From an uncultured Bifidobacteriaceae bacterium (GTDB taxonomy: Bacteria > Acidobacteriota > Vicinamibacteria > Vicinamibacterales > UBA2999): a stretch of 64,000 nt of DNA. Of the stretch, positions 14,430-60,927 are shown in pieces (within the stretch, counting starts at the first letter, position 1; each line of letters opens with the position of its first letter). Made by a program: the position numbers and the translations under genes. Location: assembly GCA_964535675.1 (NCBI GenBank), contig CAZHTD010000007.1, positions 5,701 through 69,700 on the forward strand, given 5' to 3'. A model generated the notes under the pieces. It made no database searches. It worked only from the letters and a program-made list of their open reading frames with translations, and had not been told where the DNA came from.

Positions 14430-14677
14430 GACGCCTCCTGTACATCGCCTTCTTCTTCGAGGTTGGGTTCGTCCTCGTCGTGACACCGTGGTCTGGGTTC
14501 TGGGATCGGAACTATTTCCTGCAGGAGGCGTCGCTGCTACAGGCAATTCTCACCAACGACTTCGTGCGGGGAGGGATCTCAGGCCTCGGCTTAGTGAACA
14601 TCTTCGCGGGGTTTTCGGGCTTGGTCGCGCAGATCATGGCGCGCACGAGCCCGGGCTCGATCGTCGACGAGCGGTGA
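14426..14677 (+). CDS. small hydrophobic membrane protein, unknown function
   Basis: ORF track, 83 aa: MRRLLYIAFFFEVGFVLVVTPWSGFW...GLGLVNIFAGFSGLVAQ. ATGA overlap upstream and GTGA overlap downstream. Confidence 0.5.
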   Translation: MRRLLYIAFFFEVGFVLVVTPWSGFWDRNYFLQEASLLQAILTNDFVRGGISGLGLVNIFAGFSGLVAQIMARTSPGSIVDER

Positions 14678-15321
14678 CGCCGCTGGTTTGCATGGTGACG
14701 GATCGGCGTCTGGCGGGATCCGAATGGATGGACGACCTGCCGGCGCGGGTGGGGGCGGCCGCGCGCGCCGGTGTCGATCTCGTGCAGGTGCGCGAGCCGA
14801 ACCTCGATGGTGGCGCATTGGCTAGGCTCGTCACGGCGTGTGTCAGTGCGGTCCCGGACACTGGGGCGCGCGTCGTCGTCAACGATCGTCTGGACGTGGC
14901 GCTGGCCACCGGCGCGCACGGTGTGCACTTGCCGGCCGATGGTGCCCCCTCTGCGCGGGTACGGGCGGCGGTGCCGCCGGGGTTTCTCGTGGGGAGGTCG
15001 GTACACAGTGCAATCGAGGCGAAACAGGCGGCCGACGGCGGCGCAGTGGATTACTTGATCCTGGGGACGGTCTTCACCTCCGTGTCCAAGCCTGGCTGGC
15101 GGCCGTGCGGCACGACAGCGCTAGCCGCGGCCGCGGCTGGGGTGAGCGTGCCCGTGCTGGCCATCGGTGGCATCACCCTCGAGCGGGTGCCAGAGGTGGT
15201 AGCGGCCGGGGCGGGTGGTGTCGCCGGAATCAGCCTGTTTGCCACCGGGACGCCGACGAACCTGGAGAGGACCGTGGCGGCGATCCGTCGGATGTTTGAC
15301 ACCCCCGAAGGGCTTTCCTAA
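14674..15321 (+). CDS. thiamine-phosphate synthase family protein (divergent ThiE/TenI-like paralog)
   Basis: C-terminal part of ORF 14488..15321: VCMVTDRR...GVDLVQVREPNLDG...VVVNDRLDVALATGAHGVHLPADG...DYLILGTVFTSVSKPG...VLAIGGITLERV...GVAGISLF. Start at GTG 14674 (GTGA overlap). Confidence 0.7.
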   Translation: MTPLVCMVTDRRLAGSEWMDDLPARVGAAARAGVDLVQVREPNLDGGALARLVTACVSAVPDTGARVVVNDRLDVALATGAHGVHLPADGAPSARVRAAVPPGFLVGRSVHSAIEAKQAADGGAVDYLILGTVFTSVSKPGWRPCGTTALAAAAAGVSVPVLAIGGITLERVPEVVAAGAGGVAGISLFATGTPTNLERTVAAIRRMFDTPEGLS

Positions 15322-15322
15322 C

Positions 15323-16057
15323 ATGGCGCGAATGTCGACACCTAGGTCGGCGGAGGGCGCGTTCGGCACCAAGTTGAAGGAGGCCCGGGAAGCCCGTGGC
15401 GTCACGCTGCGCCAGATTGCCGACCGAACAAAGCTGTCCATGGTGACTCTTGAGGCCCTTGAGCGCAACGACATCTCGAGGCTGCCCGGCGGCATCTTCA
15501 CCCGCGCGTTCGTCCGATCCTATGCGGCTGAGATCGGCCTCGATCCCGAGCGTACTGTGCGGGAGTTTATCGAAGAGTTTCCACATGACTGGGTCACGGC
15601 GGGCAGTGCCCATATGCGGCAGGACAGCGACGGGCGCGCTTCCGAGTTGCGGCGACGGGCGCTGGCGCTGGCCGGCGGCGGCGTGATCATCGTTGCAGCG
15701 CTCGCCGGTGGATGGCTGGTTTGGAGTGGTGCGGCCGATTCCGCCGGCGGCACAGGTGTCGCGCCCGCCGGGCCGCCAGCGTCGGCGGTCGCGCCGATGG
15801 TTTTCGAAATCATGGCCGCATTGCCGTTAACCGTGGAGGTGTCGGTCGACGGTGCGCAGAGCGAAGTGCACGACGTCGTGGCTGGCGAACGACTCGTGCT
15901 GTCGGTCGAGCATGAGGTGGTGCTTAATGCCAGCGATGGTGGCAGCCTTCGCCTCAGCATCGATGGACAGTCGGTTGCCCCGATTGGGCTGCCGGGCGAG
16001 GCCGCGTCGGTGCGCATCGATCGCGACAACGTCGAGTCGTTCCTCGCCGTCCGGTAG
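15323..16057 (+). CDS. RodZ-like helix-turn-helix membrane protein
   Basis: C-terminal part of ORF 15215..16057: FGTKLKEAREARGVTLRQIADRTKLSMVTLEALERNDISRLPGGIFTRAFVRSYAAEIGLD, then a TM segment. The start is ATG 15323 or ATG 15332, the latter 7 nt after a TAACAT box. Confidence 0.7.
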   Translation: MARMSTPRSAEGAFGTKLKEAREARGVTLRQIADRTKLSMVTLEALERNDISRLPGGIFTRAFVRSYAAEIGLDPERTVREFIEEFPHDWVTAGSAHMRQDSDGRASELRRRALALAGGGVIIVAALAGGWLVWSGAADSAGGTGVAPAGPPASAVAPMVFEIMAALPLTVEVSVDGAQSEVHDVVAGERLVLSVEHEVVLNASDGGSLRLSIDGQSVAPIGLPGEAASVRIDRDNVESFLAVR

Positions 16058-16075
16058 TTCTTCACTTAGCTCCGC

Positions 16076-16760
16076 ATGGACATCCGGTCGCTGTTGCTCG
16101 AACTCTTTTCGCTGTGGGGAGGTGGCGCCCGATGTCCAGCTGCCCGCCGCGTAGGATGCCCTCGCCCCGCGGGCCCACGAGCAGATTGCGCTCCTCCTTC
16201 TGCTGTTCGGTGCCCACGGTCCCGAGATCGCTTGGACGGTGCACAGACCCTCAAGGTGATCCCTTGGGACGCGCTGGCCGGGTTCCTCGCACGGCCGGAC
16301 GTCGGCGGCGACGTGCGGGAGTTCTTCGCTGCACTCGGCATCGCGCCAGCCGACGTCTTGGCTGGGGGAGGGAGTCGAGTCGTTTGTCGATACCGCCGAG
16401 CCGGCGCCTGAAGCCAAGGAGGTCCGAGAGACGCTGGAGGACACACGCTCGACCCTTCAGCGGAGCCGCGATGCCGGTGGTGCAGAAGAGCAGCCTCCCC
16501 TGAAGGGCGGCGCAGAGGTGGAGCCCATCGAGCGGATGTCTAACATTTCGACGGACATCCTGCGCATCATCGCGACGACGCAGACGTGGGTGAAGGACTA
16601 TGCGGTCGTCGCGGCGCTGACGCGAAACGCGAACACACCGGTGGCACTGCCCACTAAACCTGCTCGGCCGGCTGAACGACTGGACCTTCGACTGTTGTCA
16701 AACGTGGCCGACAGACCGCGGATCAGCGCTCGCAAGAAGCTGGCGCTCGACACGCAGTGA
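16076..16760 (+). pseudogene. decayed conserved-hypothetical gene with three frame switches and one in-frame TAG
   Basis: Protein-like sense hops between two frames. It reads MDIRSLLLELFSLWG, then EVAPDVQLPAA-TAG(16152)-DALAPRAHEQIALLLLLFGAHGPEIA, then LDGAQTLKVIPWDALAGFLARPDVGGDVREFFAALGIAPADVL, then GVESFVDTAEPAPEAKEV...ILRIIATTQTWVKDYAVVAALTRNANTPVAL...ARKKLALDTQ. No single frame is open. Confidence 0.5.
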
Positions 16761-16761
16761 T

Positions 16762-17013
16762 TCAGGCCTTGCCCAGGTGCTTCAGGCGCTTGGTCCCGCG
16801 CCCTTTCGTCTTCCGCTCCTTTGCCTTCCGTTTCTCAGCGGTCGCCTCTCGCGGGCCCACTGCGTGCACATTGTGGTTAGGCCTCCCATGTAGACGGTCG
16901 CGCGCTCTCGATAGCTCCTCCGACTCCGGGCGGGTCAGCAGGGAGACCGCCTGGGCCAGATCCTGCTGAATCGTGGCCGGAAGTACAGGCGGCGAATCTC
17001 CTGCAGGGCCTTG
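16762..17013 (-). pseudogene. small ORF with a Lys/Arg-rich tail that lacks a canonical start; the 5' part seems frame-shifted
   Basis: The minus frame is open from 17013 to TGA 16762-16764: ...ATIQQDLAQAVSLLTRPESEELSRARDRLHGRPNHNVHAVGPREATAEKRKAKERKTKGRGTKRLKHLGKA. It has high G/C3 but no ATG/GTG/TTG. Upstream sense (VDLDKALQEIRRLYF) lies in another frame. Confidence 0.3.
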
Positions 17014-17071
17014 TCAAGGTCGACGGGGTGGCAGTGTCACGGCCCGGAGGGACACGCCCCTGTCTGACCGC

Positions 17072-18061
17072 TTAGCCACGGATGAGTCCACGGGGCTCGA
17101 TGCGGAAGTTCAGAAGACGGCCCCCGCTGGCGGACAGCGTCTGCGCGATGGCTTCCCGGCGCTCCGGAGGACCGTAGCAGAACAGGCACCCGCCCCCACC
17201 GGCGCCGCAGACCTTGGCCGCAGTGGCGCCGGCGGCGGTCGCGTCGGTGATGAGGCGCTCAATGGCCGGCGTGGTTACTCCGGGCACCAGGCGCTTACGG
17301 TGCTCCCACTCCTCGACGATGGCCTCGCCCAACCCGTTCCAATCGCGCTCACTCAGCGCGGTGCGCATAGCGGCCGTGGCACGCACAATGTCGGCCATGC
17401 AGTCGCGCACGTGAGTGTCACCGTCGATGTGTCGCTTGGTGATCTCCCAGTTGGTGATGCCTGACTGCCGGGGCGTTCCTGTGTAGCACAGCACCATGCG
17501 GCGCTCGAGCGCCTCGGCCTCGATGTCCAGTGGCACACGGCGCACACCCTCTGGTCCCAGCTCGAGGGCCGCGATGCCGCCATAGAGCGCCGGGCGGTAG
17601 TCCTGGAGGCCGGTCGGTACGCCGATGGCCTGCGCTTCGACGTTCAGGGCTAACTGGAGTAGTGCCTCTGGCTCGTAGTGGACCTGTCGCCACTCGGCGA
17701 GTGCCGCGCAGCAGGCCACGGTGAGCGCCGACGACCCGGCGATTCCGGCGCCCGCAGGAGACTCGGCCACCGACGTGATGGTCACGCCGCGCGCCTCGAA
17801 GGCCACGGCGATGAGCGAGAGGAGGCGCAGCGTGCCGGCATCGCGCAGCGCGTGCCAGTCGTCGGCCTCGACGACGGCGCCGGTGTCCTCGGAGCGGATC
17901 ACGACACGGTCGTCGCCGCGTGAGTCGATGCGCACCCGCGCACGGAGGCTGATGGCAGCGTTGAGCGTCTGCGCACCGGGGTGAAAGAGGTAGAGCGGCC
18001 AGATGTCGAGCGTGCCGCCGCCGAGGTCGATTCGCGTCGGCGCGGAAGTGTCGATGCGCAC
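17072..18061 (-). CDS. GHMP-superfamily sugar kinase (HddA/fucokinase-like sugar-1-kinase type)
   Basis: ORF 17072..18286, trimmed to GTG 18061 because the first 75 codons overlap nagZ and are Arg/Pro junk. VRIDTSAPTRIDLGGGTLDIWPLYLF..., GHMP motif II ESPAGAGIAGSSALTVA, motif III KVCGAGGGGCLF. Confidence 0.8.
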   Translation of the reverse strand: MRIDTSAPTRIDLGGGTLDIWPLYLFHPGAQTLNAAISLRARVRIDSRGDDRVVIRSEDTGAVVEADDWHALRDAGTLRLLSLIAVAFEARGVTITSVAESPAGAGIAGSSALTVACCAALAEWRQVHYEPEALLQLALNVEAQAIGVPTGLQDYRPALYGGIAALELGPEGVRRVPLDIEAEALERRMVLCYTGTPRQSGITNWEITKRHIDGDTHVRDCMADIVRATAAMRTALSERDWNGLGEAIVEEWEHRKRLVPGVTTPAIERLITDATAAGATAAKVCGAGGGGCLFCYGPPERREAIAQTLSASGGRLLNFRIEPRGLIRG

Positions 18062-18067
18062 GCCCAA

Positions 18068-18075
18068 ATTATAAT
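18068..18075. promoter_or_regulatory. palindromic ATTATAAT: a perfect TATAAT -10 hexamer on both strands, 6 nt from each divergent GTG
   Basis: The 20-bp intergenic segment 18062-18081 reads gcccaaATTATAATgagtgg. Plus strand: TATAAT 18070-18075, then 6 nt, then GTG 18082. Minus strand: TATAAT 18073-18068, then 6 nt, then GTG 18061. Confidence 0.45.
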
Positions 18076-18081
18076 GAGTGG

Positions 18082-19173
18082 GTGCCCGCGCCCTCGCGAC
18101 GCCGGATCGGTCAGCTCTTGATCGGCAGTCTTCCGGGCGTCGTGATTCCACCAGAGCTACGCGCGCTGGCGCGCGAGTTCGAGCTCGGCGGGGTGATCCT
18201 CTTTGCCCGGAACGTCGAGTCACCCGAGCAGGTACGCGACCTCTCGGCCGAGCTGCAGGGCCTGGTGCCTCTCGCCGCCCCGCCACTGTGGATCAGCGTC
18301 GATCAGGAGGGCGGCCGCGTGGCGCGGCTCCGCGCGCCGTTCACCGAGTGGCCGCCGATGGCCACGCTGGGTCGTAGCGGTGATGTGGCGCTCGCCGCGC
18401 GGTTCGGCGCCGCGCTTGGCCGTGAGCTGCGGGCCGTGGGCGTGACGTTGGACTACGCCCCCGTCCTCGACGTCCACACCAACCCGGCGAATCCAGTCAT
18501 CGGCGACCGCGCACTGTCGGAGGACCCGGTCACGGTAGCCCGCCTCGGCGGCGTGTTGATCGAGGCATTGCAGACGGCGGGTGTCGCGGCCTGTGGCAAA
18601 CACTTTCCGGGCCACGGCGACACCTCACTCGACTCGCACGTCGACCTCCCGGTCGTCGAACACGACCTCACCCGGCTGCGGCACGTCGAGTTCGAGCCGT
18701 TTCGGGAGGCCGTACGCCGACGCGTCGCGTTCATCATGACTGCCCACGTGTTGCTGCCGGCGCTCGACGAGGAGCGGCCGGCGACGCTCTCACCAGCAAT
18801 CGTCGACGGGCTGCTCCGTCGGGAGATTGGCTTCGAGGGCGCGATTCTCAGTGACGACCTTGAGATGCGGGCGATCGCTGATCGCTACTCGGTACCCGAG
18901 GCGGGCGTGAAGGCGCTAGCGGCCGGCTGTGATGGCCTGCTCGTGACGAACGGCAATGTCGATCTGCAGGCGGCTACGCTTGAGGGCCTCGTCCACTGGG
19001 TCGAGGACGGATGGATCGCGCGGCAACGCCTCCACGATGCCCATGCGCGCATGGAGGCCCAGAAGGTGCGCTTCCTGACCGGGGGTGCCCGCCCGCCTCG
19101 CGAGGCGCTCGATGGGCTGGTCGGGTGCGACGAGCACCGGGCCGTGGCCGAGGAGATGGCACGGTTCGCATGA
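18082..19173 (+). CDS. nagZ: beta-N-acetylhexosaminidase NagZ (GH3)
   Basis: ORF track: GGVILFARNV...WISVDQEGGRVARL...TLDYAPVLDV...IGDRALS...CGKHFPGHGDTSLDSH. Confidence 0.9.
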   Translation: MPAPSRRRIGQLLIGSLPGVVIPPELRALAREFELGGVILFARNVESPEQVRDLSAELQGLVPLAAPPLWISVDQEGGRVARLRAPFTEWPPMATLGRSGDVALAARFGAALGRELRAVGVTLDYAPVLDVHTNPANPVIGDRALSEDPVTVARLGGVLIEALQTAGVAACGKHFPGHGDTSLDSHVDLPVVEHDLTRLRHVEFEPFREAVRRRVAFIMTAHVLLPALDEERPATLSPAIVDGLLRREIGFEGAILSDDLEMRAIADRYSVPEAGVKALAAGCDGLLVTNGNVDLQAATLEGLVHWVEDGWIARQRLHDAHARMEAQKVRFLTGGARPPREALDGLVGCDEHRAVAEEMARFA

Positions 19174-20102
19174 CGGCGGCCCCGATGGTGCGCGGACCGC
19201 GGCTGACCCGCGGCGACCGGGTGGCGCTGGTCGCGCCTTCCAGCCCGTTCGAGGGAGATGTGGTCGACGCCGGGCGGGCGGAGTTGGCGCGGCTCGGCTA
19301 TGAGCCGGTCCACGACGAGAGCATCTTCGCCAGGCGGGGCTTCGTGGCCGGGACGTCCGGCGAGCGAGCCGAGACCTTTACCCGCATCTGGCTCGACCCT
19401 GACGTGAAGGCGCTGCTCGCTGTGCGAGGCGGGTACGGGAGCGCGCAGATGCTGCCGCTCCTCGACGCCGCGATCCTGCGACGCGTGCCGAAGTTGTTTA
19501 TCGGCTACAGCGACACGACTTCCCTGGCGGCATGGCTTAGCTGCCACGCGGGGATTACCGCCGTGCACGGTCCGATGCTGGAGGGTCGTCTGGCCAAGGG
19601 GCCGATGGCTTACGATGAGCGGTCGTTCGTGCGCCTGCTGTCCGGGGAGGCCGGCTTCACACTGGCGCCGCCAGGGCTGGAGGTGGTGCGGGGCGGGACA
19701 GCAGAGGGCCCGCTCTACGGAGGGACGCTAACCCAGCTGGCTGCCTCGCTCGGCACGCCCTACGCCTTCGAGCCACCGGACGGCTGCGTGCTCTTTCTTG
19801 AGGATGCTAACGAACGTCCGTATCGCCTCGATCGTCTGCTGACGCAGCTCAGCCAAGCGGGCACACTGGGCCGGGCGCGGGCCATCGTATTCGGCGAGAT
19901 GCGGGGCTGCGATGAGCCGGGGGGTGGGCCGACCGCGCGCGAGGTGATCGCTGACTTCGCGGCGACGGTCGACGGGCCCGTCCTCGTCAGGTTCCCCTCT
20001 GGCCACACGACTGGCCCGTGCTGGAGCCTGCCCCTCGGCACATGCGTACGCGTGACGACGGCGCCGGCGGGCGTGGTCGTGGAGAAGCCCGTCGTTGTCT
20101 GA
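19170..20102 (+). CDS. ldcA: LD-carboxypeptidase (muramoyltetrapeptide carboxypeptidase)
   Basis: C-terminal part of ORF 19011..20102 from ATG 19170 (ATGA overlap): GDRVALVAPSSPF...GFVAGTSGERAE...ALLAVRGGYGSAQMLPLLD...IGYSDTTSL...FPSGHT. Confidence 0.85.
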   Translation: MTAAPMVRGPRLTRGDRVALVAPSSPFEGDVVDAGRAELARLGYEPVHDESIFARRGFVAGTSGERAETFTRIWLDPDVKALLAVRGGYGSAQMLPLLDAAILRRVPKLFIGYSDTTSLAAWLSCHAGITAVHGPMLEGRLAKGPMAYDERSFVRLLSGEAGFTLAPPGLEVVRGGTAEGPLYGGTLTQLAASLGTPYAFEPPDGCVLFLEDANERPYRLDRLLTQLSQAGTLGRARAIVFGEMRGCDEPGGGPTAREVIADFAATVDGPVLVRFPSGHTTGPCWSLPLGTCVRVTTAPAGVVVEKPVVV

Positions 20103-21507
20103 GCCACGGCGCATCTACCTGATCGGCATCTGCGGCACGGCGATGGCCACGCTGGCGGCGCTGCTGAAGCGCCGGGGGTTCGACGTTCGGGGATCGGATC
20201 AGCAGGTCTACCCACCCATGAGTGACTTCCTGGCGGCTGAGGGGATCGCCGTCCATGCGGGCTACGCCGCCGTCCATGTGCCGGACGACGCCGACGTGAT
20301 CGTGGTCGGGAACACCATTTCACGCGGGAATCCCGAGCTTGAGGCGGTGTTGGCCCGGCGGTTGCGTTTTACCTCTCTTCCCGAGATCGTGCGCGACCAC
20401 TTCCTGTGGGGGGCCAGGCCAATCGTTGTAGCCGGCACACACGGCAAGACCACGACGACCTCGCTGCTCGGTTGGCTGCTGACCAGCGGCGGTATCGACC
20501 CGACGGTCTTCGTGGGCGGGATTGTGCTGAACTTTGGGGAGCAGGGGGCAAGCTATCGTCTCGGGGAAGGCAGGACCGTCGTGATCGAGGGTGACGAATA
20601 CGACAGCGCCTTCTACGACAAGAGCCCCAAGTTCTTGAAATACGTGCCGGAAGTTGCCATCGTCGGCAACATCGAGTTCGACCATGCCGACATCTACGGC
20701 GAACTTGATGAAATTCTGCTGCAGTTCCGGCGCCTGACGCGACTCGTTCCGCGAAACGGCCTCCTGCTCGTCGGCAGGGACAGTCCGACGGCGGCGGCCC
20801 TTGCCGACGAGGCCCTCAGCCCGGTGGAGACCTTCGGGCTCGATCCAGCGAGCACTTGGCGTGCCGACAGAATCGAGCACGCCGACGGCGCAGCGTACTT
20901 TGATGTCTTTAGGGATGGCTGGCCCTTTGGGCGCTTTCGTTTGCCGCTGCTGGGCGCACACAACGTGTGCAACGCGCTGGCGGCGATTGCCGCGGGTGCC
21001 CATGCTGGGCTCGACCGCGACGCGCTGGCCGAGGGGTTGGCCACGTTCCGCGGCGTCCGCCGTCGCCTAGAGCGCCGGGGCGAGGTGCGAGGCGTCGTGG
21101 TGATCGACGACTTCGCTCACCACCCGACGGCGGTTCGCGAGACGCTGGCGGCCCTGCGATCGGGGTATCCCGGGCGGCGCATCTGGGCGGTCTTTGAGCC
21201 TCGGTCAAACACGTCGTGCCGCCACGTTTTCCAGGACCAGTTCGCCGACGCGTTCGCGGGGGCCGACGAGGTGATCGTTGCAGCGGTCTTCCGCGCGTCG
21301 CTGCCGGAGGCCGAGCGCCTGTCGCCCGAAGGGCTCGTCGAGGCCATCGGCGCGCACGGCCAGTCGGCACGGTATGTGCCGACGGTCGACGAGATCGTCA
21401 AGACCGTTGACAACGAGGCGCGTCCCGGCGACGTGGTGGCGGTGATGTCCAACGGGGGCTTCGGTGGCATCCACGGCAAGCTGCTGCAGGCGCTCGCGGG
21501 TGAGTAG
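20095..21507 (+). CDS. mpl: UDP-N-acetylmuramate:L-alanyl-gamma-D-glutamyl-meso-diaminopimelate ligase
   Basis: ORF track (TTG start): IYLIGICGTAMATLAALLKRRGFDVRGSDQQVYPPMSDFL...VAGTHGKTTTTSLL...EGDEYDSAFYDK...DDFAHHPTA. Confidence 0.9.
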   Translation: MSEPRRIYLIGICGTAMATLAALLKRRGFDVRGSDQQVYPPMSDFLAAEGIAVHAGYAAVHVPDDADVIVVGNTISRGNPELEAVLARRLRFTSLPEIVRDHFLWGARPIVVAGTHGKTTTTSLLGWLLTSGGIDPTVFVGGIVLNFGEQGASYRLGEGRTVVIEGDEYDSAFYDKSPKFLKYVPEVAIVGNIEFDHADIYGELDEILLQFRRLTRLVPRNGLLLVGRDSPTAAALADEALSPVETFGLDPASTWRADRIEHADGAAYFDVFRDGWPFGRFRLPLLGAHNVCNALAAIAAGAHAGLDRDALAEGLATFRGVRRRLERRGEVRGVVVIDDFAHHPTAVRETLAALRSGYPGRRIWAVFEPRSNTSCRHVFQDQFADAFAGADEVIVAAVFRASLPEAERLSPEGLVEAIGAHGQSARYVPTVDEIVKTVDNEARPGDVVAVMSNGGFGGIHGKLLQALAGE

Positions 21508-21523
21508 GTCCCCCACGACTCCG

Positions 21524-23116
21524 GTGGTGCGGGAGGTCGGCGACTCGGCGCTGCTGCTTGAGTTCGACGCGCGGATCGATCCGGCCGTCAACGACCGGGC
21601 CGTCGCGGCCGCTGCAACCGTACGCGCGTACGGGCTGGCCGGGGTGCGCGACGTCGTGGCCGCGTTCCGTTCGGTTGCCGTCTTTTTCGACCCGACACGC
21701 GCCGACGCCAGCCAGGTGGCCTCCGCGCTGCGGGAGGCCGTCGCCGGACCAGCGCCCGCCGTGCGGGGCCAGGTGGTCCAGATTCCTGTGGTCTACGGCG
21801 GCGAGGCAGGCCCCGACCTCGACGAAGTAGCCGAGTGGGCCGGCCTGTCGTCTGCCGGGGTCATCGCCCGCCATGCCGCCCAGGAATACCGCGTCTACAC
21901 TATGGGGTTCCTGCCAGGATTCGCCTATCTGGGCACGGTGGATTCGGCGGTGGCCGCGCCGCGTCGCGCACGACCACGCGTACACGTGCCGCGCGGGTCA
22001 GTGGGCATTGCCGGGTCCCAGACGGGCGTGTATCCGATGACGTCACCCGGGGGATGGCAGCTCGTCGGGCGCAGCCACGTCCGGATGTTCGACATCGCGC
22101 GCGAGCCAATCTCCCTGCTTGCCGTTGGCGACCGCGTGCGGTTCCGTCCCGAGCCCGGCCCCTGGCGCGATGCCGGGGCAGAGACGAGCAGGGCCGCAGC
22201 GCGACTGATAGCGGCGCGCCAGGTAACGGTGGTGACGCCGGGCCTGTTCACCACCGTGCAGGACCTGGGGCGCTGGGGATACCAAGACCGGGGCGTGCCG
22301 GTGGCGGGGGCAATGGACGTTGACGCCTGTCGCCGGGCGAACCGGGCGGTGGGGAACGCCCCCGGTGCCGCAGTCCTCGAGGTTACACTGATCGGGCCCG
22401 AGCTCCACTTCGAGTCTGGCGCGCGTGTGGCGGTGGCGGGTGCCGATCTGTCTCCCGCGCTTGACGGGCGAGCCCTGCCGCGGGATCGGGCGACGACGGC
22501 TTCGCCAAGCAGCGTGCTGCGATTTGGCGAGCGGCGGGGAGGTGCCCGGGCATACGTGGCCTTTGATGGCGGGGTGAACGTACCCCTGGTGCTGGGGAGC
22601 CGCGCGACGCACGCGCGCAGCGCCCTCGGGGGGCTCGACGGCCGGCCACTACAATCGGGTGACCGCCTCGGGCTCGGACGTGTGTCCGGAGAGCCCGTCG
22701 CGATGCCGGAGCGGTGGTTGCCCGACGGGGGCGCGCGGGTCCGTGTCCTGCCCGGCCCGCAGCTCGAGGCCTTCGGGGCAGGTGCGCTTGATGCCCTCAC
22801 CGGGACGCGGTTCGTGATCTCCCCTCAGTCCGATCGGATGGGATATCGCCTCGATGGCCCAGTGCTTCCCGGGGCGCCGGCGGCTGGGACGATGATCTCC
22901 GACGTGACGTTTCCCGGGGCAATCCAGGTGCCGCCGTCGGGCGAGCCGATTCTCCTGCTTGCCGACCGTCCGACCACGGGCGGGTACCCGCAGATCGGCG
23001 TGGTGGCCACCGCCGATCTCGACACCGTGGGCCAGCTCGCGCCCGGCGACTGGATCGAGTTCGCGCCATGCACACGGGTTGAGGCGGTTGCTGCACTGGA
23101 GGGCGAGGGTGGCTGA
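21524..23116 (+). CDS. fused KipI/PxpB-like and KipA/PxpC-like protein (allophanate-hydrolase subunit 1 plus subunit 2 domains)
   Basis: Single ORF 21464..23116. The N-terminal half (VREVGDSALLLEFDARIDPAVNDR...GFLPGFAYLG...GSVGIAGSQTGVYP) is PxpB-type. The C-terminal half (VVTPGLFTTVQDLGRWGYQDRGVPVAGAMD...SPQSDRMGYRL...TGGYPQIGVV) is PxpC-type. Start placed at GTG 21524. Confidence 0.8.
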   Translation: MVREVGDSALLLEFDARIDPAVNDRAVAAAATVRAYGLAGVRDVVAAFRSVAVFFDPTRADASQVASALREAVAGPAPAVRGQVVQIPVVYGGEAGPDLDEVAEWAGLSSAGVIARHAAQEYRVYTMGFLPGFAYLGTVDSAVAAPRRARPRVHVPRGSVGIAGSQTGVYPMTSPGGWQLVGRSHVRMFDIAREPISLLAVGDRVRFRPEPGPWRDAGAETSRAAARLIAARQVTVVTPGLFTTVQDLGRWGYQDRGVPVAGAMDVDACRRANRAVGNAPGAAVLEVTLIGPELHFESGARVAVAGADLSPALDGRALPRDRATTASPSSVLRFGERRGGARAYVAFDGGVNVPLVLGSRATHARSALGGLDGRPLQSGDRLGLGRVSGEPVAMPERWLPDGGARVRVLPGPQLEAFGAGALDALTGTRFVISPQSDRMGYRLDGPVLPGAPAAGTMISDVTFPGAIQVPPSGEPILLLADRPTTGGYPQIGVVATADLDTVGQLAPGDWIEFAPCTRVEAVAALEGEGG

Positions 23117-24200
23117 AAGCGTCTGCCGCCCGGAGGCCGGTGTACCCCTAGCGGAGTCGACCACGCTCGGCGTCGGCGGGCCGGCCCGCTGGTTCGTCCG
23201 GGCGTCCGGGGTCGCGGAGGTGGCCGCCGCGCACCGCTGGAACCAGGCCCATGATTTCCCACTAACCGTCCTTGGCGGTGGCAGCAATGTGGTCGTGGCC
23301 GACCGAGGTATCGATGGGTTGGTGCTGCACATGACTGGTGACGGTGTGGATCTGGAGCCGGACGGGTCGGCCACCCTGGTGCACGCGGCGGCGGGTGCAG
23401 AGTGGTCGGCCGTCGTGGACGCGGCCGTGGGGCAAGGGCTCGCGGGCATCGAGTGTCTGGCCGGGATTCCCGGCAGTGTTGGCGGTACCCCGATCCAAAA
23501 TGTCGGGGCGTACGGGCAGGAGGTCGCGTCGGTCATCGCACGGGTCGAGGTCTTTGACCGCGTGGTGAGCGCGTCGGTGAGGCTCGGGCCAGACGAGTGT
23601 GGCTTCGGCTATCGGACCAGCCGGTTCCGCGACGTCGAAGCCGGGCGGTTTGTGGTGTGCGGAGTGAGCTATCGGCTGCGGGCGGGTGCGCCGACCGTGG
23701 CCTATCCGGATCTGGCCAGGTACCTGGACGAGTCCGGCGTTCCGGAACCGAATCTCGCGGACGTGCGGCGGGCCGTGCTTGCGATCCGGCAGCGGAAGGG
23801 GATGGTACTCGACCGCGCGTACCCCGAGATGCGCAGCGTGGGATCGTTCTTTGCGAACCCGATGGTGTCCGAGGGCGACTACGCGCGGCTGCGCGACACG
23901 CTCGGGGATGTCCCGGGCACGAGCCAGCCTGAAGGCCGTGTGCGGGTGCCGGCGGCATGGCTCATCGAGCGTAGCGGGTTCGAGCGTGGGCACCGGACGG
24001 GCACGGTCGGCGTTTCCGCCATGCACCCGCTGGCGATTGTCGCGGGCGAGGGCGCGACCGCTCGTGACGTGGTGCGCTTGGCGGTGTCGATCAAGCGCCG
24101 GATCGCCGAACGCTTCGGGGTGTGGCTGCGCGCTGAGCCCGTGTTCCTGGGTTTCGGCGCTGACGCGGATGTCGAGTACCTGCGGCGCGTGGGGCCGTAG
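23109..24200 (+). CDS. murB: UDP-N-acetylenolpyruvoylglucosamine reductase
   Basis: C-terminal part of ORF 22959..24200 from GTG 23109: TTLGVGGPARWFV...LTVLGGGSNVVVAD...LAGIPGSVGGTPIQNVGAYG...SVGSFFANP. Confidence 0.9.
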   Translation: MAESVCRPEAGVPLAESTTLGVGGPARWFVRASGVAEVAAAHRWNQAHDFPLTVLGGGSNVVVADRGIDGLVLHMTGDGVDLEPDGSATLVHAAAGAEWSAVVDAAVGQGLAGIECLAGIPGSVGGTPIQNVGAYGQEVASVIARVEVFDRVVSASVRLGPDECGFGYRTSRFRDVEAGRFVVCGVSYRLRAGAPTVAYPDLARYLDESGVPEPNLADVRRAVLAIRQRKGMVLDRAYPEMRSVGSFFANPMVSEGDYARLRDTLGDVPGTSQPEGRVRVPAAWLIERSGFERGHRTGTVGVSAMHPLAIVAGEGATARDVVRLAVSIKRRIAERFGVWLRAEPVFLGFGADADVEYLRRVGP

Positions 24201-24230
24201 CGGCAGTGGGCCAGCGGGACGGGTGGGGAG

Positions 24231-25484
24231 ATGTCGGCACTGGTGATTGAAGGTGGCCATCGGCTCGAGGGGCGGGTGGCCGTCGAAGGTAACAAGAACG
24301 CGGCGCTGCCGCTGCTGGCTGCGTGTCTGCTCACAGACCAGGAATGTGTTCTCCACAACGTCCCGCGAATCGGCGACGTCGACGTGATGGCCCGGCTGCT
24401 CGCCGATCTTGGCGTGGAGGTGGAGGGGGTTGGTACGACCACGCTACGCGTTCGTGCGGGGGCGCTACGAACCCACGACCCCGATCACGCACTAGTCAGC
24501 CGGCTGCGCGGGTCGGTGCTGTTGCTGGGGCCACTGCTGGCGCGCCTCGGGCGAGCGCACATCGTGTCACCCGGCGGTGACTTCCCAGCGCGGCGGTCGA
24601 TCGCGACGCACTTGGCCGCGCTGAGCGCGATGGGGGTGCGGCGGCGCGAGGGTCCCGGTTACGACCTCGAGGCACCCAACGGGCTGATGCCCGCCTCGAT
24701 GTACCTCTACGAGGCGTCGGTCACCGGTACGGGGACGGCGCTGCTGGCGGCGGCCACTACCCCCGGGCGCACCGAGATCCGCCACGCTGCCACCGAGCCC
24801 CACGTGGTGGAACTGTGCGAGTTCCTGGCATCGATGGGTGCCTCGATTGCTGGCACGGGCAGCTCACAGCTGGTGGTCGAGGGGGGGCGCTTGGGCGGTG
24901 CGACCCACGAGCTCAACGGCGACTACATCGAGGCTGGGAGCTGGGCCGTGGTCGGCGCTCTCACAGGCAGCGAGCTGGCTGTCGAGGGTGCACGTGAGGA
25001 GGATGTCGAAGTGGTGGTCTCGGTGCTGCAGCGGATGCGTGTGCGCTGCAGCATGCGTGACGGAGTGCTGGAAGTGCACCCGTCCACGCCGACAGCGGTG
25101 CGACGGCTCACCACGGGGCTCTGGCCCGGGTTCCCTAGCGATCTGGTCAGCCTCTTCACGGTGTTAGCCACCCAGGCGGAGGGCCGGACCCTGATCCACG
25201 ACTGGATGTACGAGCTGCGTCTCTTCGCGCTTGAGCAGCTGAGTGGGATGGGCGCCGACATGTTTCTCGCAGACGCACACCGGATCATCGTGACGGGCCC
25301 GACGCAGTTGCGCGGGGGCCGTACCCTCGACAGCCGGGACCTGCGCTCGGGGATGTCGCTGATCGCCGCCGGGCTGGCGGCCGATGGAGAAACCCGCGTG
25401 CTGCCTGTCGAGACTGTCGAGCGTGGCTACAGTCGGCTCGTGGAGCGGCTCCGGCAACTCGGTGCTAGGGTGGAAAAGCGCTAG
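24231..25484 (+). CDS. murA: UDP-N-acetylglucosamine 1-carboxyvinyltransferase (Asp at the catalytic Cys position)
   Basis: ORF track: VAVEGNKNAALPLLAACLL...VSPGGDFPARRSIATHL (E. coli PGGC115TIGARPVDLH)...GFPSDLVS...DLRSGMSLIAAGLAA...ERGYSRLVERL. Confidence 0.85.
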   Translation: MSALVIEGGHRLEGRVAVEGNKNAALPLLAACLLTDQECVLHNVPRIGDVDVMARLLADLGVEVEGVGTTTLRVRAGALRTHDPDHALVSRLRGSVLLLGPLLARLGRAHIVSPGGDFPARRSIATHLAALSAMGVRRREGPGYDLEAPNGLMPASMYLYEASVTGTGTALLAAATTPGRTEIRHAATEPHVVELCEFLASMGASIAGTGSSQLVVEGGRLGGATHELNGDYIEAGSWAVVGALTGSELAVEGAREEDVEVVVSVLQRMRVRCSMRDGVLEVHPSTPTAVRRLTTGLWPGFPSDLVSLFTVLATQAEGRTLIHDWMYELRLFALEQLSGMGADMFLADAHRIIVTGPTQLRGGRTLDSRDLRSGMSLIAAGLAADGETRVLPVETVERGYSRLVERLRQLGARVEKR

Positions 25485-43107: not shown

Positions 43108-43113
43108 GCACCG

Positions 43114-43758
43114 GTGTGGTTTCCGCGCCTCCAGGCCATCGTTGACACCGACGTGGCGACCCTCGCCGGCTGGGAGCCCGGGGCGCTGGCGGCCCGCTAT
43201 CTCGAGGGTGGCGCGCGCTGGCTGCAGATTCGTGCCAAGGGCATGCACACTGGGCCACTGCTTGACCTCTGTGACCGGGTGGTGGCGCTGGCGCGTCCGG
43301 CGAGGGGACTCGTCATTGTGAACGACCGCGCCGACGTGGCCTGGCTGGCAGGCGCGGCTGGCGTGCACGTCGGCCAGGAAGACCTGGCCCCGTCGGTGGC
43401 CCGGTCGCTGCTCGGGCCGGAGGCCATCGTCGGCTGGTCCACGCATAGCCGCGACCAGCTGGCGGCGGCACCCGAGCCAGCGACCTATGTCGCCGTGGGG
43501 CCGGTCTTCGGCACCCGCACTAAGGACACCGGCTACGAGGCGGTGGGGCTCGACCTGCTGCGCACCGCAGCGGTCGCCAGCCGTCCCGTGGTTGCAATCG
43601 GGGGGATCACCCTGGACCGCGTTCCGGACGTGCTCGGCGCGGGTGCGTCGGCCGTAGCGGTAGTCACCGACCTGCTCGCGGGCGGCGACCCGGCCACCCG
43701 GGTGCGGCAGTATGTCGAGACGCTGGAGCACAGCCCCGATGAGGCTGGGGCTACCTGA
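43114..43758 (+). CDS. thiE: thiamine-phosphate synthase
   Basis: ORF track: WLQIRAKG...VIVNDRADVAWLAGAAGVHVGQEDL...VGWSTHS...YVAVGPVFGTRTKD...VVAIGGITLDRV...AVAVVTDL. Confidence 0.85.
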   Translation: MWFPRLQAIVDTDVATLAGWEPGALAARYLEGGARWLQIRAKGMHTGPLLDLCDRVVALARPARGLVIVNDRADVAWLAGAAGVHVGQEDLAPSVARSLLGPEAIVGWSTHSRDQLAAAPEPATYVAVGPVFGTRTKDTGYEAVGLDLLRTAAVASRPVVAIGGITLDRVPDVLGAGASAVAVVTDLLAGGDPATRVRQYVETLEHSPDEAGAT

Positions 43759-47187: not shown

Positions 47188-48417
47188 TCAGGACTCAGTC
47201 GTGGTAGCGCGGGTATCGGCGGTCTCGTCATGGCGGGCTGGAGCGATCCGCTCTTCGACGAATGTGTTCCATTCGTGACACTGCGGGCACTGCCACAACA
47301 GCTCGGTACTGCGGTAGCGGCAGCGCACGCACACATGCGGGTCGAGGTAGAAGACCGCCTCCCTGGCTAGGGCCACGTAGCGAGCCACCAGCGTGGGGTC
47401 TAGGCCGAGGCCCGCGAGCGCCCGCCACGCTGCTTGGTGGATCACTAGGCCGTGCGGGTTGTGGGGGAGGGCGTCGAGGAGCACGTCGAAGGCCTCCCGG
47501 TGGCGGCCGGCTGTGTCCAAGTGCCGCGACAGGGCTAGCCGGGCCCGCCAGTCTTGGTCGTTGGTGGCGATGAGCCGCTGGCACAGCGCCGCGAAGGCGT
47601 CCGAACGGTTCAGCGATCGGTACGCCCGTTCCAGCCGATCGAAGACCAAGTGGGCCCGGTCGGGCGCCATCTCCACCAGCGTCTCCCACGCATGGACCGC
47701 TCCAGGCAGGTCACCCAGCTGTTCGCGGACGTCGCCAAGGTTCAGGTGGGCAGGGAGCGTCCGTGCGTCGGCCTCCATGGCGCAGGTGAAGGTACGCGCG
47801 GCCTCGTCGAGCGCGCCGTTGCCCAACTGGACCTCGCCCATGGCGTTGTGCAGGAACCCCTGGATCTGGCCGTCGCCTGTGCCGAGCTCGACGTCGAGCT
47901 GTTCCCGCACCCGCAGCGCATCGGCCCACTGATGCTGCTCCTCGTGCAGCTTCTGGAGGTTGATCAGCGCGTAGCGGTTGCGGGGGTCGAGACGCAGGAC
48001 CTCGGTGAAGGCCTCGAGCGCGCGGTCCACGAATCCGCCGTGGCGAAAATCGAGCCCCAGGCAAAGCAGAATGTACGCATGCTCAAGTGTTGTCAGGTCG
48101 GCACGCTGGAGCAGCGCCTCGTGCACGTTGATGGCACGGCCCACCTGCCCCTTCTCACGGTAGAGGTTGCCCTGGATCAAGTGCAGCTCAAGGGCGTCGT
48201 TGCCGGCCGAAATTGCGCGCCCAAGCTCGTCGAGTGCTTGGTCGCGCCGGTTGTCGGCGAGGTAGTTGAGGCCCAGCATGTAGTGGGGCGTCTCGCGGAG
48301 CCGGCGCCGGTCGACCCAGCGGCCATCGTGCAGCTTGTAACGCTCCCAGGCCTTGCCGACGGTCAGTCCCAGTAGCAGCGCCACCAGCGGGAGGACGATG
48401 ATCAGGGAGTCGCCCAT
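47188..48417 (-). CDS. lapB: LPS assembly regulator LapB/YciM-like (N-terminal TM, TPR repeats, C-terminal zinc knuckle)
   Basis: ORF track: MGDSLIIVLPLVALLLGLTVGKAW..., multiple TPRs, and a C-terminal CVRCRYRSTELLWQCPQCHEWNTF. Confidence 0.8.
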   Translation of the reverse strand: MGDSLIIVLPLVALLLGLTVGKAWERYKLHDGRWVDRRRLRETPHYMLGLNYLADNRRDQALDELGRAISAGNDALELHLIQGNLYREKGQVGRAINVHEALLQRADLTTLEHAYILLCLGLDFRHGGFVDRALEAFTEVLRLDPRNRYALINLQKLHEEQHQWADALRVREQLDVELGTGDGQIQGFLHNAMGEVQLGNGALDEAARTFTCAMEADARTLPAHLNLGDVREQLGDLPGAVHAWETLVEMAPDRAHLVFDRLERAYRSLNRSDAFAALCQRLIATNDQDWRARLALSRHLDTAGRHREAFDVLLDALPHNPHGLVIHQAAWRALAGLGLDPTLVARYVALAREAVFYLDPHVCVRCRYRSTELLWQCPQCHEWNTFVEERIAPARHDETADTRATTTES

Positions 48418-48429
48418 GGTGGTCCTCGG

Positions 48430-49401
48430 TCAAATCATCTCGGTACGCCAGAGGGCGTGGAGGTGCACGACGCCCGCCACGCTGCCGGCAGGCTCGACGA
48501 CGATGATCGAGGTGTACTTGTGCGCTTCGAGGAGCCGCAGCGCCTCGACGGCTAGGGCGTCGCGTGTGAGGGTGAGCGGTTCGCGCGTCATCACGTCCAC
48601 GGCACGGCGCTCAAGCAGGGTGGGCGACGCGCTCATGTGGCGCCGCAGGTCGCCGTCGGTGATTATGCCCACTAGGCGGCGATCGCTGTCCACCACGCAC
48701 GTCATCCCCAGGCCCTTGCTCGACATCTCATAGATGACCTCGGGCATGACGGCGTCGCGGCCTACCACTGGGGCGTCGTCGCCGGCCTGCATGAGCTGCT
48801 CGACCCGCATCAGGCGCTTGCCCAGCTTGCCGCCGGGGTGGAGCGAGGCGAAGTCCTCTTGCCGGAAGCCCTTCGCGACGGAGAGCGTCATGGCGAGCGC
48901 GTCGCCGAGCGCCAGCGCCGCCGTGGTGCTGGCGGTGGGTGCGAGGTTCATCGGGCACGCCTCCTCCGAGACGTGGCAGTCGAGCACAACGTCGGCGGCT
49001 TGGCCCAGCGTCGAGGTCGGGGTGCCCGTCAGCGCGATCAGTGAGGCGCCCAGTCGCCGGATTGTCTCCAGCAAGCGCACCAGTTCGTCGGTCTCGCCGC
49101 TGTGGGAGAGCGCGATGACCACATCGCTGCCCTGGACGACGCCGAGGTCCCCGTGCAGCGCCTCAGCCGGGTGCAAGAAGAAGGCCGGCGTACCGGTGCT
49201 CGCCAGTGTAGCGGCGACCTTGCGGCAGACGATACCCGATTTGCCCATGCCCGTGACGATCACACGGCCCTGGCACTCGAGCAGCAGACGCGCAGCGGCC
49301 TTGAACCGGGTGTCCAGACGATCGATCAGGCCGAGGATGGCCGCCGCCTCAGTCTCAAGCACCTGTTGGGCCAGCGCCAAGTCGAAACACGGCGCGGTCA
49401 C
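48430..49401 (-). CDS. kdsD: arabinose-5-phosphate isomerase (KpsF/KdsD; SIS plus tandem CBS)
   Basis: ORF track: RVIVTGMGKSGIVCRKVAATLASTGTPAFFLHPAEALHGDLG...ALSHSGETDE...APTASTTAALALGDAL, then CBS domains. Confidence 0.85.
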   Translation of the reverse strand: MTAPCFDLALAQQVLETEAAAILGLIDRLDTRFKAAARLLLECQGRVIVTGMGKSGIVCRKVAATLASTGTPAFFLHPAEALHGDLGVVQGSDVVIALSHSGETDELVRLLETIRRLGASLIALTGTPTSTLGQAADVVLDCHVSEEACPMNLAPTASTTAALALGDALAMTLSVAKGFRQEDFASLHPGGKLGKRLMRVEQLMQAGDDAPVVGRDAVMPEVIYEMSSKGLGMTCVVDSDRRLVGIITDGDLRRHMSASPTLLERRAVDVMTREPLTLTRDALAVEALRLLEAHKYTSIIVVEPAGSVAGVVHLHALWRTEMI

Positions 49402-50243
49402 GCTGGCCGCTCCGTTTCCGCGTCGCGGCCGTGCGAGGCCTCGTCGACGCGCAGGAGCTTGCCGACCAAGGTTTCGAGGAGGTCAAGTCGTAGGGCGTTG
49501 CCGCCGTCGCTCGGCGCGCGCGCCGGATCGTCGTGGACCTCCACGAACACTGCGTCGACCCCGGCGGCTACACCGGCGGCGGCCATCGGCTCGATGTACT
49601 CAGCTAGGCCCGTGGTAGCCCCGTTGCCGGCCCCCGGCAGCTGGAGACTGTGGGTGACGTCGAATACCACCGGGTGTCCCAGTGCGCGCAGCATCGGGAA
49701 GGCGCGGACATCGACCACCAAGTTGTTGTAGCCGAAGCTGACGCCTCGCTCTGTTACCAGAACGTTGGCGTTGCCCTCGGCGGTGATCTTGTCGATCGCA
49801 TGGCGCATGTCCCGCGGCGCGAGGAACTGTCCCTTCTTGATGTTGACGGCCTTGCCGCTGCGGGCTGCGGCCACGAGCAGGTCGGTCTGCCGCGAGAGGA
49901 AAGCGGGGATCTGCAGGACGTCAACGACTGCCGCGGTGGGCTCGACCTGCTGCGTCTCGTGGACGTCGGTCAGCACCGGCAGCCCGGTGCGCGCGCGGAC
50001 CTCGGCGAGAACGCGCAGGCCGGCCTCGAGTCCCGGGCCGCGGAAGGCCGTGCCTGAGGTGCGGTTGGCCTTGTCGAACGAGGCCTTGAAAACCACGGGC
50101 ACGCCCGTCCGCTCGGCAATGGCTCGTAGGGCGTCGGCCATCTCGAGGGCGTGCTCCCGGCTCTCGATGACGCACGGTCCTAGGATAAAGGTTAGGGGCT
50201 GGCCAGTGCCCACGGTCAGGGGGCCGATGCGGGCCGGTTGCAC
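49398..50243 (-). CDS. kdsA: 3-deoxy-8-phosphooctulonate synthase
   Basis: ORF track: ILGPCVIESREHAL...FKASFDKANRTS...LTDVHE...LQIPAFLSRQTDLL...NIKKGQFLAP...FDVTHSLQLPG. Confidence 0.9.
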   Translation of the reverse strand: MQPARIGPLTVGTGQPLTFILGPCVIESREHALEMADALRAIAERTGVPVVFKASFDKANRTSGTAFRGPGLEAGLRVLAEVRARTGLPVLTDVHETQQVEPTAAVVDVLQIPAFLSRQTDLLVAAARSGKAVNIKKGQFLAPRDMRHAIDKITAEGNANVLVTERGVSFGYNNLVVDVRAFPMLRALGHPVVFDVTHSLQLPGAGNGATTGLAEYIEPMAAAGVAAGVDAVFVEVHDDPARAPSDGGNALRLDLLETLVGKLLRVDEASHGRDAETERPA

Positions 50244-50274
50244 GGCCCCATTCTACCCACAGCGGGTGTCGCCG

Positions 50275-52709
<2,435 letters not shown>

Positions 52710-52780
52710 ATTAAATCATAGCACGTAGGTTAACGTAACCGACTCGTCACACCGAAACAGTACAATCGGGCTACGCACCG

Positions 52781-60908: not shown

Positions 60909-60927
60909 CCGGGGCCTCCTGGCCACC

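Follow-up and report, generated by a model that had tools for sequence, protein, structure and literature searches.

What does a sugar kinase do whose gene lies head-to-head with an operon for the recycling and synthesis of murein? The question is raised by a 64-kb stretch of DNA from a soil acidobacterium (below referred to as the window; GC content about 68%), which is of the Vicinamibacterales type to judge from the names that its near-identical homologues bear. In a preliminary description of this sequence, the kinase gene, which is divergent from the beta-N-acetylglucosaminidase gene nagZ, was proposed to encode an undescribed amino-sugar kinase. The comparisons presented here place its product in a distinct clade of the GHMP kinases that is predicted to phosphorylate sugars at C1. 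We rate the chances as about even that it acts on N-acetylglucosamine (GlcNAc) or a related (amino)sugar and thereby feeds the salvage of uridine diphosphate (UDP) sugars. The gene in question is:

17072-18061, minus strand: GHMP kinase with GHMP_kinases_N and GHMP_kinases_C domains; 329 aa, GTG start.

Both domains scored above their cut-offs (PF00288, 52.5 bits; PF08544, 48.1 bits), and the start at 18061 is supported by the almost uniform length of the homologues, nearly all of which have 329 aa. The AlphaFold2 model of the protein (pLDDT 96) was matched by Foldseek to the heptokinase WcbL with a TM score of 0.92 and a root-mean-square deviation (rmsd) of 2.2 Å. Among sequences with solved structures the best matches are the HddA-type kinases 3K85 and 4N3O, followed by WcbL, with identities of 24-28%. 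In WcbL, R13 and D163 are catalytic, D22 and Q162 contact the sugar, and Q162 has been tied to an enlarged pocket (PMC4691232). The corresponding residues of the kinase (R10, D154, D19 and Q153) are all invariant in an alignment of 45 family sequences, and the GSGLGGSS-type glycine-rich phosphate loop is invariant or nearly so. As the catalytic and sugar-contacting residues of WcbL are kept throughout the family, it can be soundly inferred that a pyranose is phosphorylated at C1, and the protein is probably an anomeric (C1) kinase that depends on ATP and belongs to a GHMP clade of its own. The earlier assignment to the GHMP kinases of the anomeric-sugar type is borne out, with WcbL, the HddA-type kinases and fucokinase as the nearest solved relatives. 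All matches in Pfam, in NCBIfam and among solved structures were GHMP kinases, and the protein does not belong to the AmgK family. No description of the kinase family was found in the literature searched.

The kinase might simply be HddA, the D-glycero-alpha-D-manno-heptose 7-phosphate kinase, and supply GDP-heptose for lipopolysaccharide (LPS), capsule or S-layer glycans, unrelated to murein recycling. Besides the closest structure and the best PDB sequences mentioned above, the top-scoring NCBIfam model (NF049969) is that of HddA, many homologues bear the Joint Genome Institute (JGI) name heptose-7-phosphate kinase, and genes for LPS and its 3-deoxy-D-manno-octulosonate (KDO) component (kdsA, kdsB, kdsD, lapB) are found at 47-53 kb of the window. 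However, the kinase reached 128.6 bits with this model (its relatives 122-172) against a curated cut-off of 600. An exhaustive search of 1.84 billion representatives returned 579 kinase clusters at E<1e-30, and the best 150 of the 579 cluster representatives are 34-62% identical to the window protein. In a neighbor-joining tree, calculated without bootstrap from 131 near-full-length representatives (including four N-terminal halves of fusion proteins) and three HddA-type PDB sequences as outgroups, a long branch parts all 131 family representatives from the three HddA types. Likewise, a hidden Markov model built from 12 acidobacterial members gave 248-475 bits for other family members and 304-379 bits for archaeal ones, as compared to 153-178 bits for HddA types. 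The family is characterized by the motifs PTRIDLxGGTLDI[WY]PLYLF, PTGxQDYY, SGxNNW and KVCGAGGGGC. Of these, PTRIDLxGGTLDI[WY]P, QDYY, NNW and KVCGAGGGGC are common to the archaeal members and do not occur in HddA types, which carry PLRLGLAGGG[ST]D, QDQY and KVSGAGGGGF instead. Furthermore, no GmhA homologue was found in the 178 kinase loci gathered for this work (177 plus the window; designated by L numbers) in a search with a GmhA query, and no HddC-type transferase in any bacterial kinase locus, NTP_transferases being confined to archaeal loci. We therefore consider an identity with HddA very improbable. The preliminary description had named a firm position in the heptose-7-phosphate kinase clade, along with LPS-heptose genes nearby in relatives, as the finding that would speak against its proposal; in score, motifs and tree the kinase lies outside that clade, and heptose genes were seen in none of the 178 loci.

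The kinase also scores far below the cut-off of the fucokinase model (PRK13412, 84.2 bits vs 721). At the position of the fucose-stacking Trp599 the kinase family has Thr17-Leu18 and HddA types have Gly, so that its specificity should match neither fucokinase nor HddA. Asp12 is shared with fucokinase, whereas HddA types have Gly in its place. As fucokinase and the kinase family both contain WEN[RK]K, this motif is uninformative as to a phosphate on the substrate. By these sequence comparisons, the kinase belongs to a separate, large and uncharacterised clade beside HddA/WcbL and fucokinase. A profile search with a diverse alignment brought in almost exclusively sequences of the Vicinamibacterales type and did not widen the diversity. 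A metagenome scan that started from archaeal-type members yielded sequences of at most 43% identity, mostly from soil Acidobacteriota, and served as an unbiased sample of genomic contexts. As a side observation, four homologues (P0140, P0161, P0166 and P0187; 620-632 aa) are fusions of the kinase to a charged C-terminal region of about 300 aa, which appears helical by eye and had no Pfam match.

What surrounds the kinase gene in other lineages? Five contexts were recognised as archaeal by neighbouring genes for thermosome, GINS, Rpb7, Pelota and S3Ae, and in four of them the kinase lies inside a glmS operon:

L091: glmS, glmM, glmU, kinase, NTP_transferase.
L173: glmS, glmM, gene of unknown function, GNAT, kinase, NTP_transferase.
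L174: glmS, HAD, kinase, GNAT, mutase.
L087: glmS, NTP_transferase, gene of unknown function, kinase, GNAT.
L172: the second gene upstream of the kinase is GlmU-like.

The SIS enzyme encoded next to the archaeal kinases is a true GlmS (701 bits) and not GmhA, which again argues against a heptose kinase, and an NTP_transferase of 225-244 aa is encoded within two genes of the kinase in the archaeal operons. Since archaea have no murein and the archaeal kinases are bona fide family members, the shared substrate is more likely GlcNAc or glucosamine (GlcN) than N-acetylmuramic acid (MurNAc). Two of these operons also contain a conserved protein of 345-375 aa (L087, 6493-7530; L173, 4045-5172) that belongs to no Pfam family and shows a faint HAD-like match; it may catalyse another reaction in a hexosamine pathway of archaea that is as yet undescribed.

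The kinase genes of bacteria other than the Vicinamibacterales type were found in the following arrangements:

L117 (8354-10867, minus strand), L120 (5907-8129, minus strand) and L170: large protein with a serine beta-lactamase/penicillin-binding-protein-like domain fused to a complete NamZ exo-beta-N-acetylmuramidase (NamZ_N and NamZ_C), convergent with and abutting the kinase gene.
L148: PIG-L-family deacetylase after the kinase gene.
L118: ROK kinase nearby.
L088 (3329-5227) and L089 (2932-4830): kinase fusions with an M23 (Csd3-like) peptidase gene 16 nt upstream and an NAD-dependent epimerase on the other side.
L175-177: PMT_2 GT-C glycosyltransferase gene 3 nt upstream of the kinase gene, in a deep-branching acidobacterial metagenome-assembled genome.

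In Blastocatellia/Pyrinomonadaceae-type genomes (L057-L083, L095-L154), a co-directional gene for a DedA-family protein with weak matches to the undecaprenyl-phosphate transporter UptA precedes the kinase gene in 30 loci (e.g. L075, 8107-10990), and 22 of these 30 have a divergent ROK-family kinase gene upstream. As members of the family thus adjoin hexosamine, peptidoglycan or envelope genes elsewhere, an amino-sugar substrate is plausible. From sequence and context, GlcNAc appears the most probable substrate of the window kinase, and MurNAc, GlcN or a 6-phosphate of these appear less probable ones.

The last of these substrates leads to a variant of this reading. Like HddA, the kinase could phosphorylate C1 of GlcNAc-6-phosphate, GlcN-6-phosphate or MurNAc-6-phosphate, and the resulting 1,6-bisphosphate would either be trimmed by an HAD phosphatase in a mutase-free route or serve as cofactor for GlmM-type mutases. 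The family is sister to sugar-phosphate kinases and keeps Q153, the equivalent of WcbL Q162; in L174 the gene immediately preceding that of the kinase encodes an HAD hydrolase, and the protein with the weak HAD-like match is present in L087 and L173. In L118 and in loci of the Blastocatellia type the kinase is accompanied by ROK-family kinases, which typically phosphorylate O6, and archaeal kinases share operons with GlmM-type mutases. On the other hand, mutases are encoded in three of the four archaeal operons that contain glmS, so that a bypass of the mutase is not needed there. Furthermore, Asp12 is found as in fucokinase, a free-sugar enzyme, where HddA types have Gly, the Vicinamibacterales operon is devoid of a phosphatase, and no phosphate-binding residues were identified in the kinase. 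We consider a 6-phosphorylated substrate improbable. A strict reading of the archaeal operons as mutase bypasses was dropped, as the 449-aa gene of L174 encodes a GlmM-type mutase.

At the locus itself, the kinase gene and nagZ are separated by exactly 20 nt (18062-18081), the length given in the preliminary description for their common control region. On the other side of this spacer six genes follow on the plus strand (18082-25484), linked by overlaps of 4 or 8 nt and a single gap of 30 nt:

18082-19173, plus strand: nagZ, GH3 beta-N-acetylglucosaminidase, first gene of the operon; PF00933 274.5 bits, NF003740 245.3 bits (cut-off 207); GTG start.
19170-20102, plus strand: ldcA-type LD-carboxypeptidase (S66); N- and C-terminal Peptidase_S66 domains.
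20095-21507, plus strand: mpl, ligase for UDP-MurNAc and L-Ala-gamma-D-Glu-meso-diaminopimelate (mDAP); TIGR01081 426.5 bits (cut-off 388.7); TTG start.
21500-23116, plus strand: pxpB-pxpC fusion (pxpBC); CT_C_D 236 bits, CT_A_B 288 bits; probable GTG start at 21500.
23109-24200, plus strand: murB, UDP-N-acetylenolpyruvoylglucosamine reductase; NF010478 347.5 bits (cut-off 231).
24231-25484, plus strand: murA, UDP-GlcNAc 1-carboxyvinyltransferase, last gene of the operon; NF006873 408.4 bits (cut-off 297).

Family searches agree with the identities proposed earlier for these genes and the kinase, all seven of which lie at the coordinates given at the time, the operon genes tightly packed in one direction. 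The ldcA product reached 128.8 bits with NF008424, below the E. coli-type cut-off of 378; with both S66 domains it is assigned to the S66 LD-carboxypeptidase family, and its exact substrate is a presumed one. The mpl product scored higher with the Mpl model than with the MurC model (325.1 bits, below the latter's cut-off of 335.1); a start at the next in-frame ATG (20143) instead of TTG would cost it the conserved N-terminal glycine-rich segment. MurA is just under the cut-off of TIGR01072 (382.3 vs 392.7). The fusion protein PxpBC exceeds the cut-offs of TIGR00370 (PxpB; 188 vs 145.6) and TIGR00724 (262.8 vs 230.2) and lies below that of the PxpC model NF045499 (225.9 vs 500). PxpA (LamB/YcsF) was seen neither among the annotated open reading frames (ORFs) of the window nor within the operon at other loci. 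As pxpBC is missing from the operon position in L015, L033, L055, L063 and L074, it is an optional component; speculatively, its product might remove 5-oxoproline derived from gamma-D-Glu peptides.

The gene junctions proposed in the preliminary description, with no gap above 30 nt, could be read directly from the sequence: the start codon of ldcA overlaps the stop codon of nagZ in an ATGA (19170-19173), and overlaps of 8 nt join ldcA to mpl (TTGTCTGA, 20095-20102) and pxpBC to murB (GTGGCTGA, 23109-23116). A fourth junction, again of 8 nt (GTGAGTAG, 21500-21507), joins mpl to pxpBC if the latter starts with GTG at 21500; this start is the likely one, given that in L003 the orthologues of mpl and pxpBC were called with an equal 8-nt overlap. 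The 30-nt gap between murB and murA has no terminator-like site on the operon strand. A single transcript with translational coupling would be the simplest reading of this arrangement. The secretin gene ending at 25500 is convergent with murA. The identical gene order recurs in dozens of contigs, from genomes as well as metagenomes, that are independent of each other, which argues that the arrangement is not due to chance.

The functions of the operon genes suggest how the kinase may be connected to them. By the established roles of their families, NagZ would free GlcNAc from imported muropeptides (GlcNAc-1,6-anhydro-MurNAc-peptides), and LdcA would shorten the stem peptide to a tripeptide. 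UDP-GlcNAc would be converted to UDP-MurNAc by MurA and MurB, and Mpl would ligate the recycled tripeptide to UDP-MurNAc. In the proposed pathway, the kinase would convert the GlcNAc freed by NagZ, or a related amino sugar, to the sugar-1-phosphate. A nucleotidyltransferase, either GlmU with its uridylyltransferase activity or an enzyme similar to MurU whose gene lies elsewhere, would then complete the return of GlcNAc to UDP-GlcNAc, the substrate of MurA, and the NagK, NagA and GlmM steps as well as the re-acetylation by GlmU would be skipped. In its most far-reaching form the proposal states that the kinase founds a new family of GHMP-fold anomeric kinases for GlcNAc and/or MurNAc that is widespread in Acidobacteriota and Archaea, with a direct route from GlcNAc via GlcNAc-1-phosphate to UDP-GlcNAc, and that it forms, together with a leaderless Vicinamibacterales operon, a self-contained system for rebuilding UDP-MurNAc-tripeptide. 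This wider claim is tentative, and we hold it to be possible rather than probable.

How closely is the kinase tied to nagZ? For 153 of the 178 loci the available sequence extends 900 nt or more beyond the start of the kinase gene. A divergent nagZ lies at a distance of 20-285 nt in 66 of these, with kinases that are 48-100% identical to that of the window, and 0.55-5.7 kb away in a further 11, where genes for NRAMP and Usp proteins, an ABC transporter, a transposase, an FtsX-type permease or a metallo-beta-lactamase-fold protein are inserted. All paired loci are syntenic, with a thiE-like gene and rnhB on one side (followed by rplS-trmD-rimM-rpsP-ffh-rib where genes were called) and the operon on the other. 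The head-to-head arrangement, the loss of which in related genomes would have counted against the preliminary description, is conserved within Vicinamibacterales-type genomes and not beyond: the pairing is missing in Blastocatellia-type loci and in all Terriglobia-type loci with the exception of L171, a Terriglobia-type contig where kinase and nagZ are once more divergent. As the pairing is kept only in Vicinamibacterales-type genomes, with insertions in 11 of the loci, adjacency to nagZ alone is weak evidence of function. The case made earlier for an undescribed amino-sugar kinase is supported in part: the argument from adjacency is weaker than it was taken to be, and the amino-sugar neighbours in other lineages make such a substrate plausible.

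Because every paired locus shares the wider synteny, the pairing could be inherited gene order. The kinase would then act on another sugar or metabolite, for example in the synthesis of an exopolysaccharide or glycoconjugate, and its position next to nagZ would have no functional meaning. In favour of this are the syntenic flank, the unrelated cargo in 11 loci, the position of the kinase ahead of a CPBP protease and gap-pgk-tpiA in Terriglobia-type loci, and the lack of nagZ near the kinase in the remaining 76 of the 153 loci, which belong to other lineages. Moreover, a conserved TATAAT box precedes the kinase gene whatever its distance from nagZ, so that the gene is presumably transcribed independently. 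Opposed to this are the hexosamine, peptidoglycan or envelope neighbours in at least eight arrangements from bacteria and archaea and the renewed pairing in L171, outside the Vicinamibacterales type. We regard a kinase without connection to cell-wall recycling as rather unlikely.

Several points nevertheless weigh against GlcNAc or a related amino sugar as the substrate. The 76 loci without nagZ belong here, as does the restriction of the pairing to one syntenic order that tolerates unrelated insertions and may be inherited. In many Terriglobia-type loci the kinase gene is followed only by genes for a CPBP protease and a protein of unknown function and then by gap-pgk-tpiA, and the neighbours in L090, L097 and L053 are uninformative. 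The neighbours counted as hexosamine, peptidoglycan or envelope genes were classed after the fact and with no enrichment statistic. The archaeal members are only 35-37% identical to the window kinase, so that their specificity may differ. No close homologue of the kinase has been characterised, and because its nearest solved relatives act on heptose 7-phosphate, the true substrate could be phosphorylated. Finally, the window holds no nucleotidyltransferase or phosphatase partner of the kinase. The only nucleotidyltransferase among its annotated ORFs is KdsB (51834-52715), and a transferase for the sugar-1-phosphate, a phosphatase, AmpG, AmpD and AnmK were not seen, so that the pathway is incomplete there. 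The earlier statement that the window lacks a MurU-like enzyme, AnmK, MurQ and AmpG holds for every larger ORF annotated, the left end having been covered by synteny with L003 only.

The 20-nt spacer contains a further conserved element:

18068-18075, both strands: palindrome ATTATAAT, which reads TATAAT on either strand, 6 nt from the kinase GTG (18061) and from the nagZ GTG (18082).

This palindrome occurs once in the 64-kb window. In about 57 aligned Vicinamibacterales-type loci, nearly all have a TATAAT box 6-7 nt before the kinase GTG, irrespective of the length of the spacer. On the nagZ side, a box that matches TATAAT in 5 or all 6 positions is present 4-9 nt before the start in 32 of the 57 loci, and 10-13 nt before it in about a dozen more. 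One palindromic box is common to both genes in about 18 loci (L003, L010-L013, L015, L017, L020-L022, L024, L025, L027, L031, L032, L055, L063 and L074) at distances of 6-7 nt on the kinase side and 6-13 nt on the nagZ side; in the others, two distinct TATAAT boxes are present. A scan for the sigma-70 consensus gave no -35 match and no full promoter, so that the promoter assignment rests on the conserved -10 boxes. These suggest that ATTATAAT is the shared -10 element of two divergent leaderless transcripts: the mRNAs of both transcription units would have no leader and would be initiated from TATAAT boxes located 6 nt before the GTG codons, the two boxes being fused here into one palindrome. 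With one box for both genes, RNA polymerase would occupy it in one orientation at a time. A shared box does not imply a shared regulator. A palindromic -10 box common to two leaderless genes would represent a compact example of divergent promoter architecture.

Some further features of the window were recorded. Downstream of the kinase (16065-17079), two small genes that are conserved at this position in relatives look damaged. A protein of about 85 aa is matched in two frames at 17079-16824 (minus strand), and one of about 220 aa at 16107-16745 (plus strand) in a frame with stop codons, of which an 80-aa ORF is left (16518-16760). They could be pseudogenes or assembly errors. Two TMP-TENI (ThiE-like) genes are present (14488-15321 and 43108-43758), the first in a conserved block beside the gene for a RodZ-like HTH_25 protein (15215-16057). 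An LPS/envelope cluster at 47188-52715 comprises genes for a LapB-like TPR/zinc-ribbon protein, kdsD, kdsA, pyrG and kdsB, which argues that the organism makes KDO-containing LPS; no heptose-pathway gene was seen in the window. A SpoIID-domain protein is encoded at 60835-62406. The remaining genes of the window, these kds, lapB and SpoIID-like genes included, are of the housekeeping type.

What is known of peptidoglycan recycling comes almost wholly from Proteobacteria, Firmicutes and Bacteroidetes. Acidobacteriota are among the most abundant bacteria in soil, and no account of the process in this phylum was found in the literature searched. Should the kinase prove to be a 1-kinase for amino sugars, it would represent a new enzyme family in amino-sugar salvage. 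It would be a counterpart of AmgK and NahK without homology to either and would bypass NagK, NagA, GlmM and re-acetylation. Thousands of genes labelled as heptose-7-phosphate kinase would have to be re-annotated, and the presence of a kinase gene in archaeal operons for UDP-GlcNAc would be explained. Such an enzyme would further predict a salvage flux of relevance for fosfomycin and beta-lactams in Acidobacteriota, and the family could provide a thermostable or promiscuous N-acetylhexosamine (HexNAc) 1-kinase for the chemo-enzymatic synthesis of nucleotide sugars.

How do the operon and the kinase compare with known systems? AmgK belongs to the aminoglycoside-phosphotransferase-like kinases, a fold unrelated to that of the GHMP kinases, and NahK of Bifidobacterium is not a GHMP protein either. 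NahK and human GALK2 catalyse the type of reaction proposed for the kinase, from HexNAc to HexNAc-1-phosphate. GALK2 is a GHMP kinase and was used as a structural comparison for WcbL (PMC4691232); its sequence (PDB 2A2C) is nevertheless a remote match to the kinase family profile (39 bits). In the AmgK-MurU(-MupP) shunt, an anomeric kinase forms MurNAc- or GlcNAc-alpha-1-phosphate and a small nucleotidyltransferase the UDP-sugar, so that the de novo steps are bypassed (PMC13046382, PMC5371407). The logic proposed for the kinase is the same as in this shunt of Pseudomonas, Caulobacter and Tannerella, and in archaea an NTP_transferase, in L174 also an HAD hydrolase, is encoded nearby. In contrast, there is no MurU-like gene next to the kinase in Acidobacteriota, and its activity is a predicted one.

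With HddA/WcbL the kinase shares the fold, the catalytic Arg and Asp, the Asp and Gln that contact the sugar, and a length of about 330-345 aa. It differs from them by the low identity, by a score that misses the HddA cut-off almost five-fold, by its position in a separate clade, and by RIDLxGGTLD in the substrate loop, NNW, QDYY and KVCGAGGGGC, as compared to RLGLAGGG[ST]D, QDQY and KVSGAGGGGF in HddA. Nor does its gene occur together with gmhA, gmhB or hddC. The fucokinase domain of Bacteroides Fkp (PDB 9IIP, 5YYS) is likewise a GHMP anomeric kinase, which acts on a free sugar; its substrate loop also begins with R-I-D, and it has the same Gln-Asp pair, whereas its Trp599 corresponds to Thr17 in the kinase, which moreover has no fused pyrophosphorylase and scores far below the fucokinase cut-off.

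Clustered operons for peptidoglycan recycling are known, for example murQ-murR-murP-amiE-nagZ-namZ(ybbC) of B. subtilis (PMC8054146), in which recycling enzymes including NagZ are likewise grouped in one transcription unit. In contrast to that operon, the one described here joins NagZ, LdcA and Mpl with the de novo enzymes MurB and MurA and with PxpBC, and has no transporter, MurQ or regulator. It is therefore a new combination of known genes. The kinase is proposed to resemble AmgK, NahK and GALK2 in function, is a member of none of these families, and falls outside HddA in every comparison made. Overall, it represents a distinct clade of GHMP anomeric kinases with a probable specificity for amino sugars and an order-specific link to an operon for the recycling and synthesis of murein.

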